This document shows, one piece after another, positions 5,263-48,974 of a stretch of DNA of 64,000 nucleotides. How positions within the stretch are numbered: the stretch's first letter is position 1; the number at the start of each line of letters is the position of its first letter. A program made the position numbers and the translations under genes. The stretch is from Octopus vulgaris (taxonomy: Eukaryota): NCBI GenBank assembly GCA_951406725.2, contig OX597831.1:57102001-57166000 (forward strand). The letters are read 5' to 3'. The notes under the pieces were generated by a model. That model saw nothing but the letters and a program-made list of their open reading frames with translations, ran no database searches and was not told the DNA's origin.

Positions 5263-5856
5263 AAGAGTGTATCATTTTGAATAAATCACAATTATAACAG
5301 AGAGGGCTGTAAAAACCCTTACATATCTAGAAATAGCAGTCAAAACCGATATAAAGCTACTATAAGCACATATTTTTGCATTCCTCTTTTATTATTTAAT
5401 TTTCACTCATATCCAGTTTTTCGCCGGGGCCCGTTTTACTGGTCTTTTCTTATAAAAGATGTGCATGATGCTAAAATTGAGAATTTGAATGTGTAGATAG
5501 AGGCTGACACATATTAATCCCCAAGGGACACATATTAATCCCCAAGGGACACATATTAATCCCCAAGGTATGTTTTTTGTGTTAATTTGTATCTACAGCA
5601 ACATCTTCCTGACGAGAAGAGTGGAGCCTTTTTTGGTTCCTAGTTTCGAAATTGCAATAGAGGACTAACCTTTTATTTTTATTTAAATTTTGAATTTTAT
5701 GCAATGTCGCCCGCCGACAGCTTTTTATTGTTGAAGTGATATAATATAAATGGTTATAGTGGCTTTATAGCGGCTTTGATAGCTATTTCTAGACATGTAA
5801 GGGTTTCTACAACCCTCTCCGTTATAATTGTGACTTATTCACAATTATACACTCTT
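5263..5856. mobile_element. Penelope-like terminal element: ~105-bp inverted repeats enclosing a 3x21-bp tandem repeat and a hammerhead motif
   Basis: 5263-5367 is the reverse complement of 5751-5856; gacacatattaatccccaagg x3 at 5506-5568; hammerhead at 5604-5664. Confidence 0.6.
5604..5664 (+). ncRNA. Minimal type-I hammerhead ribozyme motif
   Basis: tcttc-CTGACGA-[gaag..ggagcc tttttt ggttcc..tttc]-GAAA-ttgcaa-TA-gagga: intact core, G10.1-C11.1 pair, palindromic stem III, 5-bp stem I. Confidence 0.75.
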
Positions 5857-6172
5857 GAAGTACCACGTAACCGAATCAAACTGTTTTAAATAATACATTT
5901 AACCTCTACTGCTTGTGCTGAGTGTCCTTTTCCGTTTGTCTACTCATATATATATATATTATATATATATATATATATATATATATATATATATATATAT
6001 ATATATATATATATATAATATATATTTGTGTGTGTATATATATATATATATATATATATATATATATATATATATATATATATATATATGGTCATTCAAA
6101 ATGTGACCGCGTGTGTACCGTTGGCGCTTTTTTCCCTCTGTCTTCCCTTCTCTGGATCTTTCCTTCTCCTAT

Positions 6173-6207
6173 GTTTTCGACGAAGAGCTCCGCTCGAAAC
6201 GTTAAAC
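6173..6207 (+). ncRNA. Degenerate minimal hammerhead motif
   Basis: gttt-TCGACGA-a-gagc tcc gctc-GAAACGTT-aaac; stems intact, first two core positions altered. Confidence 0.5.
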
Positions 6208-8795
6208 CCTCCTTCTTCCCTTCCTTCCTGAGCGTCCAATAATACTATATTTGTTCCACGTCCTCGCGTTGTTGCGTTTTTTTGTGCTTTCATGTTTGGA
6301 TTAACTTTATATATATATATGTATATATATATGTATATATATGCATATATTCATACATATATGTATTTCTACATTCGAAAAGCGGAGTAGATAAAACAGG
6401 GGACAACTGATGAAGAGAATGTTCTTTATGGTGCCTGTCTCGTGTCTCAATTTGTTTCTTTCGTTGTTCGAAAAAAAGTTCGTTTATCTATGTTTTTGTT
6501 TTTTTATGTTCTCGTTTCTCATTCTGTCTACGTTTTTTTTTATGTCCTGTACCCTTATATGCATGTATATATATACATGTATATGCATGTATGTACATAT
6601 ATGTATGTATGTATATATGCATATATTTATATATTATTTATATTATTATATGATCGAACGCCACGCACCCATTTCCAAGTAAGTTTTATCTATCTATCTA
6701 TCTATCTATCTATCTATCTATCTATCTATCTATCTATCTATCTATCTATCTATCTATCTATCTATCTATCTATCTATCTATCTATCTACATACACATCTA
6801 TATATATATATATATATGTATTTATCTATCTATCTAACTTCACATACATATGCATATATATACATGAATATATATACATATATATATACACATGTATATG
6901 AGTGTGTATATATATATATATACACACATATATATATATATATATGTATACACACACACACGCATACACATATATATATTCTTTACTTGTTTCAGTCATT
7001 AGACTGCGGCCATTCTGTGCACTACCTTATGTATGTATGCATGTATGTATGTATGTATGTATGTATGTATGTATGTATGTATGTATGTATGTATATATAT
7101 GTGTGTGTGTGGGGGGTATGCATAAACACGCACATGCGTACACACATTATATACTCATATACATACATAGAAACATACATACATACTATATAGACGTTTA
7201 TAATAACAGATCCCGAAAGGAATCAACGGCCCTTCCTGAGCCATACATTCATGAGGCCGGTTTCCCGGATTCAGTGGCTTATATATTACCCACTGGACGG
7301 GACGCCGGACCAGTTACAGGATCGCTAATTTTAAGCAGCTGAGTGGACAGAAGCAACACGAAATCAGGGTTTTTATCCATGAACACATTGCACGGTCCGG
7401 GAATTGAAACCACAATCTTACGACCATGAATGGGATCGGCGAAATAAGTACCAGTTACATACTGGGATCGATATAATCAACTAGACCCTGCCCCCCCCGA
7501 AAAATAAAGACAGGATAGTCAGAGCTGTAGCGCTTTTGACTATGAATGTAACACCCTGACCACTATGCCACGCGCCTCAACTATGCCCAATGTGTGTGTG
7601 CGTGTGTGTTATATTTTGCCAAATGGAATGGAGTATTTTTGGTGCGCCATTTAAAAAGGTAGAAGCTTACAATTCAATTCTATAACAACAACTCGGTTGG
7701 ACTGGAACGGCCAAAGAATGTGATTTTGCCAAGGAAGCAATCAAATACTCCTTACGGTATTTTAACGTGCATGGTAAATTATAGACCGAATATTTACCGT
7801 TTCCTTACATGGTATCGATTTACTTTGAAACGTTTGCGTTCATCTGCTCAAGTTCACGTCTTTGATTATCCGATTTTATTCCATTCTATCAAGCATAAAT
7901 AATTTTATGGATGTTGCTGGGAAATGAATCGTTTTGGAAAGAAGCACGTGTATGTGTATGTCTATGTTTATGTGTGTGTGTGTGCGTGCGCGCGTGCGTT
8001 TATGCATGTATGCATGTACCTACGTATGCATGTTTGTATGTATGTATATATGTATGTATGTATGTAGCTATCTATCGAGAGAAAGAGAGAAAGGCTGTCT
8101 CAGACTCAAAACACATATTAGTTAGCTCTATCTCAATGTATCGAGCACCATTGTGAGCTTAACATTCTCATATCAATGAGATATATAACGTTATATATAT
8201 ATATATATATATATATATATATATATATATATATATATATATATATATATATATATATATATATATATATATATATATATATATATATATATATTCAACA
8301 ATAATTGAGGAACGACCACAGCATAGGCCGTTCAACCCACTAGAAAGAGCAGCCAGGGCTCCAACCGCAAATAGTAGTAATTCCGAAATATATATATATA
8401 TATATATATATTCATATATGTACGCGCACATACATGTGTATGCGTGCTTGTAACATGTGTATGTTACATGTGTCTGTGGGTGAGAGAGAGAGAGAGAGAG
8501 AGAGAGAGAGAGAGAGAGAGAGAGAGAGAGAGAGAGAGAGAGAGAAAGAGAGCTAGCTGAAGTGCCTATCACCAATCTTGGTTACAATCACCAATTTTTG
8601 AACCAGTTAACATTATATTCTAAAGCAAATCAACAGAAGATAAAGGTTATTTTGTGTCTTCGCTTATGGATTTTCAAATAGATTAGAACATCTGGAAAAG
8701 TATTACATTAATACTAAAAGTATACTTCAATACTAAAAATTATAAAACGTTTATGTTACTTCTTAGATGAAATTAAAAAAAAAAAATTTTCCTAT

Positions 8796-47164: not shown

Positions 47165-47790
47165 TGCGTATTACAAGGCTGTAGTCCTTACCACTCTCTT
47201 ATACGGCTCTCACTCTTGGGTCTTGTAGTGCTTGGAGAGGTTCCACCAACGCTGTCCGCAAGAAAGCTAGGACGACCAGTATCGAGGCCATTCTTATGAA
47301 GACACAGCAGCACTGGGCGAGGCATATCTCCTGTATAGGGAACCATTGCCTGCCAAAGATCGTACTCAATGGAAAACTGTCTTCTGGCTGTCAAAATAGC
47401 AGTGCGCCCAAGAAACGGTATAAAACATGCTAAAAAAAAAGCATGTCTTATACCGCTTCTCAAATGCATCGTGATTTTGACAGCTAGAAGACAACCCTCC
47501 GTAAAAAAGACCCTGAACGTTTTGTTACATCGTTCCCCGCCAGTGGGCCACTCAAGCTGCTAACCGCAATGCTTAGCGCCACACCATCCAGCAGGCCACC
47601 AGCGCATTTGAGGCAAACCGTCGTGTCAGCCAGGAGGAGAGGAGAGCCCGAGGAAAGGGCTGTATTAGGGCGGAGCCAAGCACACCACAAACATTTCCCT
47701 GCGGTCGCTGTGGACGGATCTGCCGATCGCGGATCGGTTACATGAGTTACTAGCATGCATACATGCGGGATGGGCGAAGTCATCGCCTAG
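47165..47790 (+). mobile_element. RTE (BovB-like) LINE 3' ORF fragment, decayed
   Basis: YKAVVLTTLLYGSHSWVL..LERFHQRC..TTSIEAILMKTQQHWARHIS..HCLPKIVLNGKL...APKKRYK and a terminal zinc finger FPCGRCGRICRSRIG; contains stops and frameshifts. Confidence 0.85.
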
Positions 47791-48938
47791 AAATTACTAC
47801 TTGTGCTCGTAACAGCCATCTTAGGGAACATTATATATATTCCTTTTCCTTTCTACTGAAAGCACAGGGTGTATAATTTGGTAGGGGGGGGGGGCAAGAC
47901 GGTCACATCGATATTAGCGCTCAACTGGTAGGTATTTTATAGATACTGAAAGAATGAAAGTCAAAGTTGTTCTCAGTGGTATTTGAACTTATAATCAGAG
48001 CCGGAAGAGATGCCAGGTGTGCTAATGATTCTGCCAGTTCGCCGCCTAAAGAACGACATAAAATGATATATAAGACACTCAGCGCTTTTTCTGATTTTGT
48101 TATTTTGTGTGTAATGGCGGATATCATCTAAATACAAACATTAAATCTTGTTTCACGAAAAGTCATGGCGGACATTACAAAAGCGTTCAAAATAAATTTG
48201 TTGCTATCGCTTCTAGTCTATCAATTAAGTGAGGTGAAAATATGTTTTTGTCTTTTCGTGAAGCCATAAATATTCCGATAATATTACAGGAGACGACAGC
48301 AAATTTGAAATATGGATTTATAGTTACTATTCTGAGAATTAGAATATTTATTTCAAATAAATTTAGTGAAATCCAATACTATATAGTCCTTTTTGAAGTC
48401 TAAATGTTATTTTGTAGCAATATTTTTCAGTTGAGACCTCCTTTTCTTGAAATTTAAATATCTGTTACAAACTTATTTTCAGCTAAGTTTCAACCTTTAA
48501 AAAGATTTATGGTATTTTTCATAAATGTCGTAAATTTTTGTAAAAAATTAGTCAAAGAAAATAAAAATTGATAGACCATCAATATTTAAACACAATCTAA
48601 ATGGATATCACAGGCTTGAATTTTATGTACGTTTGCATGTGTGTCAGTGTGTTTTTATACATACACATCGGTTTGTGTGTATGTATGTAGATATGTTTGT
48701 GCACGTATACATATATGTTTGTATGAGAGCCTGATATTTATACACATACACTTAGATATATTATATATATGTATGTGTATGTTTGTATATATATATGTAT
48801 ATATATATATATATATATATATATATATATATATATATATATATATATATGTGTGTATATATATAAATATACATACATATATATATATATATATATATAA
48901 TATACTTTATTTAAAAGCAGCAGAAATTTAACAAAAGC

Positions 48939-48974
48939 TGTTACTCGGAGTTTCACGTTCCCGTTCGTCGGACA
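48939..48974 (-). ncRNA. 36-nt minimal hammerhead motif, U4C core variant
   Basis: Minus strand tgt-CCGACGA-acg ggaa cgt-GAAA-ctccgag-TA-aca; all three stems pair perfectly. Confidence 0.7.

Follow-up and report, generated by a model that had tools for sequence, protein, structure and literature searches.

The 64,000-nucleotide (nt) stretch of the Octopus vulgaris genome analysed here (the window; G000:C18:57102001-57166000 of a 2.8-Gb assembly) contains about ten dispersed loci with minimal hammerhead-ribozyme motifs. In all likelihood each is the truncated end of an element from a dispersed repeat family, probably made by copying uncut RNA of the element into (TA)n DNA that had been nicked, along with the minimal hammerhead of its pseudo-long terminal repeat (pLTR), a motif expected to cleave only as a dimer, and then slowly. 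A Penelope-like origin was established for three families, those of the loci at 13958, 48939 and 40817, and is likely for the rest. The general picture, with minimal hammerheads in pLTRs, inverted arms and (TA)n targets, is already in print, and the novelty implied by a first-pass annotation made from the letters alone is unsupported; what we did not find in print is the hammerhead load and the lineage of locus 13958, whose core has U at position 6 (U6), the rest being mostly known. Families are lettered below as A (6173), B (13958), C (5604), D (18551), E (22819), G (24859), H (35577), I (38451), J (40817) and K (48939).

Our strict descriptor (CYGANGA, helix II of at least 3 bp, GAAA, palindromic helix III, UH, and helix I of at least 3 bp) matched the window three times (5609+, 48971- and, in a shifted register, 24899-), compared with a mean of 0.08 and a maximum of 1 in 100 dinucleotide shuffles. 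A relaxed-core version gave five matches against 0.19, so that the shuffle check proposed with the first-pass annotation revealed an excess in both forms. A chance origin of the motifs in low-complexity intron DNA is hardly credible, and is refuted for the ten families tested, leaving 24519 as the remaining candidate; it is contradicted by the shuffle controls in the window and in 600 kb of sampled genome, by reversed-pattern controls that give 0, and by family copies that lie nearer the hammerhead consensus than the window copies do. In its favour, the window sequence itself departs from the core at 8 of the 13 listed sites, and one relaxed match (16675+) looks like chance. Two further CUGAUGA sites, at 39562 and 56680, were considered as hammerheads and rejected when the descriptor failed at both.

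All core boxes are intact at five of the 13 listed sites (5609+, 24899-, 35582+, 38454+ and 48971-), and to this extent the claim of about ten loci with one hammerhead grammar stands; the others are decayed, variant or half copies. The copy at 6177+ has U3 where the family majority has C3 (24/30), 13989- combines U6 with CpG decay, 40821+ has lost G8, and 24519+ has GAAG instead of GAAA. At 22826+ the core reads CCAAA with a deletion, in a family that has no G5 in 15/15 copies; at 18555+ the GAAA box is missing, as in 15/15 family copies; 18407- is only the 3′ half of a motif; and the core at 38339- is broken. The stems were said to differ between loci and yet keep pairing, which proved correct: they are family-specific and paired, with self-complementary helix III arms, and the six quoted helix III sequences are all present, two of them (ctccgag and ccctggg) palindromic around one unpaired centre. 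Helices I and II are paired and helix III is short and palindromic, with only 2 contiguous bp of helix I in the window copies at 24899, 35582 and 38454. Self-pairing of the helix III arm is predicted at -6.5 to -16.4 kcal/mol for arms of 8-10 nt and at -1.7 for ACGU.

By genome search, ten of the loci each fall in a dispersed family, and the stems vary from family to family. Family counts refer to the top 15-30 copies nearest the window copy, which is itself included, and are not random samples. The core is intact in 24/30 copies of family A, 10/20 of C, 19/20 of H, 15/15 of K, 8/15 of J, 14/15 of I and 9/15 of G, and in only 1/20 of B and 0/15 of E. Most copies of C, G and I have the canonical core (8/15 in J), and the majority form of A, H and K has C at position 4 (C4). 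A preference of the loci for (TA)n tracts had also been claimed. It is evident in five families, whose 3′ ends abut (TA)3 in 26/29 (A), 11/19 (B), 15/19 (H), 9/14 (I) and 7/14 (K) copies, against a background of 5.3% of random 12-mers; the other seven of the 14 K copies meet (TA)3 after a 70-nt tail. It is not evident in C (3/19), J (1/14), E (0/14) or G (0/14), where the query end may differ from the element end. Inverted repeats around several motifs, likewise claimed, are real by self-BLAST at 5263/5856, 18369/18683 and 38301/38546, and in each family between 0 and 6 of the 14-29 loci have an inverted partner. The (TA)n preference and the inverted arms are confirmed.

The suggested link to Penelope-like elements was confirmed when frames for reverse transcriptase (RT) and GIY-YIG endonuclease were reached from families B, K and J. 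The family B stub (13870..14031, -) lies in (TA)n, with core CUGUUGA (U6) at 13989 and a predicted cut after 13962, and is the pLTR end of a Neptune-type element. The family K stub (48905..48974, -), 70 nt in (TA)n, has core CCGACGA at 48971, helix III ACUCCGAGU and a predicted cut after 48942; it passed the strict descriptor and is the pLTR end of a Hydra-clade element. At locus L329 a frame bearing the Hydra marks DKT, CxCX5C and terminal CxxC/CxH stands 1.25 kb upstream of family K, only 655 nt of the spacer being confirmed by a second copy, and at L255 family K adjoins an inverted piece of the same Hydra-type protein. The family J stub (40700..40898, +), beside (TA)n, has its core at 40821, with G8 lost, and helix III ACCCUGGGU, and follows the end of a Hydra-like endonuclease; the family stands directly after the endonuclease end at L331, with RT pieces upstream at L330. 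The K partner (L329/L269) has all three Hydra-clade marks, while only the terminal motifs were seen for J, and Pfam gave no recognition of the Hydra-type frames. In these marks, in (TA)n insertion and in having a hammerhead, the K element resembles the Hydra clade as described in PMC8557442 (File S1); compared by features rather than by sequence identity, it differs from that clade, including Hydra-1_Obim, in its C4 core, A-U closing pair and 70-nt tail.

Elsewhere in the genome, L177 holds an intact element (inverted pLTR, pLTR, 778-aa frame, pLTR) with a CCGAAGA motif in each pLTR, and L175 holds a 775-aa frame with RVT_1 and GIY-YIG domains in a 4271-bp tandem. The latter (G000:C1:27839000-27848900) is a very young Neptune-type family with an overlapping upstream frame of 454 codons, and in its pLTR motif, whose core is CCGAAGA, helix II has a U-U pair at its base and the palindrome is GUAC. 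Four apparent partners were rejected: the L167 endonuclease (5928-6628), taken for that of lineage B, is a separate neighbouring element, the true B frame being of the L332 type; the L186 frame, taken for that of family A, is likewise a separate neighbour; the GIY-YIG piece downstream of family H (L309/L328), taken for a hammerhead-bearing Naiad, is a different element behind a (TA)n break; and the L166 endonuclease beside family K belongs to other elements.

The label "retrozyme-like", also applied to the loci, did not hold, with no tandem hammerhead array found in 150 of the 174 repeat rows of the window or in the family loci. It is improbable that some of the untraced families are non-autonomous retrozyme-like elements replicating as small circular RNAs between tandem hammerheads. 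Such an origin would suit the finding that most copies are 70-600 nt long and frameless, and a 2026 preprint (10.64898/2026.07.22.740005) derives animal retrozymes from pLTRs. Animal non-LTR retrozymes share with our families type I hammerheads, Penelope ancestry and many solo copies. They differ, however, in their short tandem arrays, none of which was seen here, and the tandems that were found have full-element periods (4271 and ~4470 bp). The copies also have common 3′ ends, ragged 5′ ends and up to 0.6-0.9 kb of upstream family sequence.

Penelope-like insertion from uncut RNA, the reading we prefer, can be followed best in family K. Its 3′ ends fall at two sites 70 nt apart (7 and 7 of 14 copies), its 5′ ends lie within ~20 nt of the core in 10/14, and the first 100 listed matches include 11 head-to-head pairs spaced 15-41 nt apart. 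Since 30/30 family K loci continue past the cut site (copies starting at the cut fall outside this sample), the sampled loci appear to have been copied from uncut RNA. In the mechanism we propose, master copies that are tandem or flanked by pLTRs, such as those described above, would be transcribed, and the GIY-YIG endonuclease would nick (TA)n DNA, a step whose target bias is seen here and whose chemistry is taken from the literature. Reverse transcription would then begin at an internal position of the RNA downstream of the hammerhead, of which there are two, hence the two 3′ ends of family K; internal priming of this kind, with cleavage dispensable for insertion in vitro, was reported by Frangieh et al. 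(2024; PMC11167929). It would mostly stop early or at the RNA 5′ end, often adding an inverted arm, as the copies display. Finally, two motifs of the same tandem transcript are predicted, in line with the literature, to pair through the palindromic helix III and to cleave weakly. In the window, the lone copies are probably carried along inert in a host intron, because opposite-strand pairs cannot form a dimer within one transcript; 13989-, 24899- and 48971- are on the transcribed strand of that intron. As a separate observation, short K copies have a preferred 5′ end ~13-15 nt upstream of the core, often within very small head-to-head palindromes, a hint that this is where the template RNA begins.

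The lineage of locus 13958 is assigned, on motif evidence, to a Neptune-type family with open RT-endonuclease frames, from which clade it stands apart by its hammerhead core CUGUNGA. A protein search gave 143/143 scored matches at 95-100% identity, most without stops, and the lineage has likely been active recently. Its frame matches RVT_1 at 31.6 bits (cut-off 29.6) and GIY-YIG with E 0.0078, below the Pfam cut-off, and the L336 translation has the CX2-5CxxC linker and CCHH motif of the Neptune clade definition (PMC8557442). Among 18 of the longest loci the motif is downstream of the RT/GIY-YIG frame in 18/18 and on both sides in 14/18, and all 33 of their 33 motifs have U6.

Canonical A6 occurs in only 180 of the 16,332 exact lineage B matches genome-wide, and U6 in 47/51 lineage B rows across the fetched loci (not counting five rows of family A). 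Among the first 100 places listed, 96 have U6, and position 7 reads U39/A23/C21/G13; in a pattern with positions 5 and 12 left free, G5 is found in 97 and G12 in 96 of the first 100 matches. In contigs of four sequencing runs from two organisms the motif changes in >10% only at positions 7, 11.1 (CpG) and 17. The free positions 7 and 17 thus vary, with G5, G8, A9 and GAAA constant. Relatives in metagenome contigs have the same minimal design (17 matches in 15/80 loci, two of them, L368 and L406, antisense in a frame and probably chance) and have A6 in 16, G6 in 1 and U6 in 0. Because none of these relatives has U6, U6 is derived in this lineage. One relative, L381, is identical letter for letter to the Acropora Neptune motif of PMC4209133, where U4 and A6 are present in all 56 representatives of Fig. 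S3 and the descriptor required a canonical core. A literature search for a U6 hammerhead core found none, A6U with hammerhead giving only a twister paper, in a coverage that excluded Lünse 2017 and supplementary file 1 of PMC4209133. The nearest precedent is A6C, one of the core variants (with U3-A8 and a cited U4C) in Perreault et al. (2011; PMC3088659), which is active below 0.1 per min; position 6 there tolerates change with low activity, but A6C is one phage sequence, whereas U6 is fixed in ~16,000 copies of one lineage.

Several results weigh against the reading we prefer. No coding frame was traced for seven searched families (5604, 6173, 18551, 22819, 24859, 35577 and 38451). Monomer folding z-scores are near zero for 7/8 motifs, and at the gathering score Rfam found 0 hammerheads in eight loci, the published-type L381 included. 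The predicted fold of the U6 monomer pairs U4-G5-U6-U7 with A14-G16.2 in an inactive hairpin, the competing dimer helix being only 4 bp, and in vitro catalytic mutants had no effect on insertion (PMC11167929). Families D and E, moreover, spread without G12 (D) or G5 (E). A rival explanation, which we consider unlikely but deserving of weight, is that the hammerhead of these elements has stopped cutting and that its fold persists as a structural signal, be it to the RT-endonuclease protein, for the promoter or for RNA stability, with U6 helping to lock a long hairpin. It would fit the U6 lineage being among the largest and youngest, the hairpin being the minimum free energy fold of the U6 monomer, in which the core is paired and both helices I and II are preserved, the preference of other young families for C4, reported to lower activity in vitro (PMC3088659), the persistence of D and E without core bases, and insertion without cleavage (PMC11167929).

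Against a non-cutting motif, G5, G8, A9, G12, A13, A14, A15.1 and U16.1 are fixed across at least five lineage B subfamilies, exactly positions 7 and 17 drift, with 17 non-G in the majority forms, a pattern imposed by catalysis, and the natural A6C variant does cleave, if slowly (PMC3088659). The lineage B motif is most likely a slowed but still selected ribozyme. It is quite possible, if short of probable, that a major retrotransposon lineage ran at least five subfamilies on an undescribed CUGUNGA core with its other catalytic bases under selection. This core would be either a detuned ribozyme or a protein-gated switch in which the U6 hairpin would block monomer cutting, and would be invisible to canonical descriptors and Rfam.

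The hammerhead load was estimated from 60 evenly spaced 10-kb stretches (600 kb), which contained 10 strict and three U6-type motifs, against 0-2 and 0-1 in 10 shuffles. By extrapolation, and with a wide Poisson range, this gives ~60,000 descriptor-passing motifs genome-wide. BLAST with 12 window motifs found 27 places in the same sample, or ~125,000 by extrapolation. The density of about one motif per 6 kb proposed for the window holds if decayed copies count; intact motifs occur about once per 46-60 kb in the sampled 600 kb. Exact pattern matches genome-wide number 16,332 for lineage B, 11,613 for family A and 409 for family K (a 34-mer), with 0 for reversed-pattern controls. We found no published figure for this load, which is far above the 4,000-9,000 given for coelacanth and Xenopus in PMC4209133; for the giant squid, 235 Hammerhead_1 matches are reported (PMC6962438). 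Additional hammerhead families were seen at L186:~2800-2900, L328:~5900, L193, L199, L233, L235, L244 and L247. None of these families is present in the window, so that family diversity is well above the ten tested.

Most of the design was described by Cervera and De la Pena (2014; PMC4209133), who report the motif and how diverse it is, together with truncated solo copies, pairs on opposite strands and weak cleavage of dimers, and by Craig et al. (2021; PMC8557442), who report inverted arms, tails and a bias towards (TA)n and whose list includes Hydra-1_Obim of Octopus bimaculoides. Our motifs share with the minimal hammerheads of PMC4209133 the type I topology, the short palindromic helix III and an extra base after A9, as well as the many unrelated families per genome, mostly solo truncated copies, and the opposite-strand pairs. 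They depart from the canonical U4 of that paper by C4 in families A, H and K and in L175 and L177, and several families have helix II domains of 30-100 nt, unlike the motifs shown there.

Among the remaining loci, the family C stub (5371..5856, +), with CUGACGA as its core at 5609, AUUGCAAU as helix III and a cut predicted after 5659, passed the strict descriptor and is faced by an inverted arm (5263..5376, -), a copy of the 3′ end with an 86% match to 5743-5856; position 7 varies among C/A/U in this family. Family A is represented by a stub in (TA)n (6090..6307, +), with its core at 6177 (U3 in the window, CCGACGA in the family) and helix III ACGU. The stub of family G (24755..24905, -) has CUGAUGA at 24899 as its core, ACCGUACGGU as helix III and a cut predicted after 24863; its inverted arm (24955..25020, +) was seen by eye and is below the self-BLAST cut-off. 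Copies of the family differ on both sides of helix II (GAGC/GCUC, GACC/GGUC). The family H stub in (TA)n (35382..35879, +) has core CCGAAGA at 35582, a helix II domain of ~100 nt, helix III ACAGCUGU, a predicted cut after 35686 and a fold z of -2.8; one step upstream of the family yielded no coding frame. In family I the stub (38425..38615, +) has its core, CUGAAGA, at 38454, with helix III ACUCGGAGU and cleavage predicted after 38504; a change in helix II of the window copy breaks the stem, and the inverted arm (38301..38424, -; 85% inverted repeat) has a broken core.

The reading that all loci are working ribozymes fails for families D and E, which are without core boxes throughout. Family D forms an inverted pair (18369..18683; inverted repeat 73%) with CUGAUGA at 18555 and no GAAA, the left arm being without the 5′ core. 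Family E (22767..22990, +) is a hammerhead-shaped relic with a CCAAAGA core and a long helix II. Its other copies share ~1 kb of upstream sequence that is hAT transposase-like on the opposite strand, where frames gave Atlas matches to DUF4371/FAM200-ZBED at 0.91-0.92 and a blank Pfam scan; L122-L135, of this family, carry the core-dead relic on a likely hAT transposase fragment. Because it sits on this hAT-like shared sequence, family E probably spread as DNA after its core had died. The sequence at 24470..24575 (+), with core CUGACGA at 24519 and GAAG for GAAA, is a decayed motif resembling families A and B. No family was found for the motif part in its own-genome search, where only the neighbouring repeat matched; in the sampled random stretches one copy matched at 85% over 33 nt. 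An unlisted repeat (6367..6556, +) has CUGAUGA at 6407 and GAAA at 6470 as a putative motif, and six homologues in the 600 kb. The Rfam scan of the window placed no hammerhead at the gathering threshold among the best 150 of 492 matches, its E-value list being dominated by microsatellite and miRNA matches.

The suggestion that the loci might lie inside a host intron was borne out. An exon at 61466..61922 (-), with AG/GT splice ends, encodes the N-terminal domain of an M1 aminopeptidase (Pfam Peptidase_M1_N, E 4.5e-19), and the next aminopeptidase exon is ~87 kb away at L436:4169 (residue 283 of P0121). Because no exon was found between the two, the whole set of motif loci falls in one ~87-kb intron. 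The host gene (61466-61922 and L436-L445) has two M1 aminopeptidase units in tandem and so resembles the ~1,900-aa bivalve proteins P0122/P0123. Two further features of the window are a 234-codon frame at 63127-63831 (+) that matches zf-RVT (E 1.7e-6) and is probably a terminal piece of a non-LTR retrotransposon, and a short interstitial TTAGGG array at 45268-45314.

In Penelope-like elements the hammerhead is nearly universal, poor at cleavage in vitro and dispensable for insertion in vitro. This genome offers, in young families with intact masters, a graded natural series of canonical, C4, U6 and core-less forms, in which the U6 lineage is a natural test of whether the cut is needed. Ribozyme counts made with canonical descriptors or Rfam can miss most motifs in genomes of the cephalopod type, and long introns carry such motifs on the transcribed strand. 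If the CUGUNGA reading is true, ~16,000 exact copies and open frames, with 180 natural A6 copies as built-in controls, would make the role of the Penelope hammerhead directly testable.

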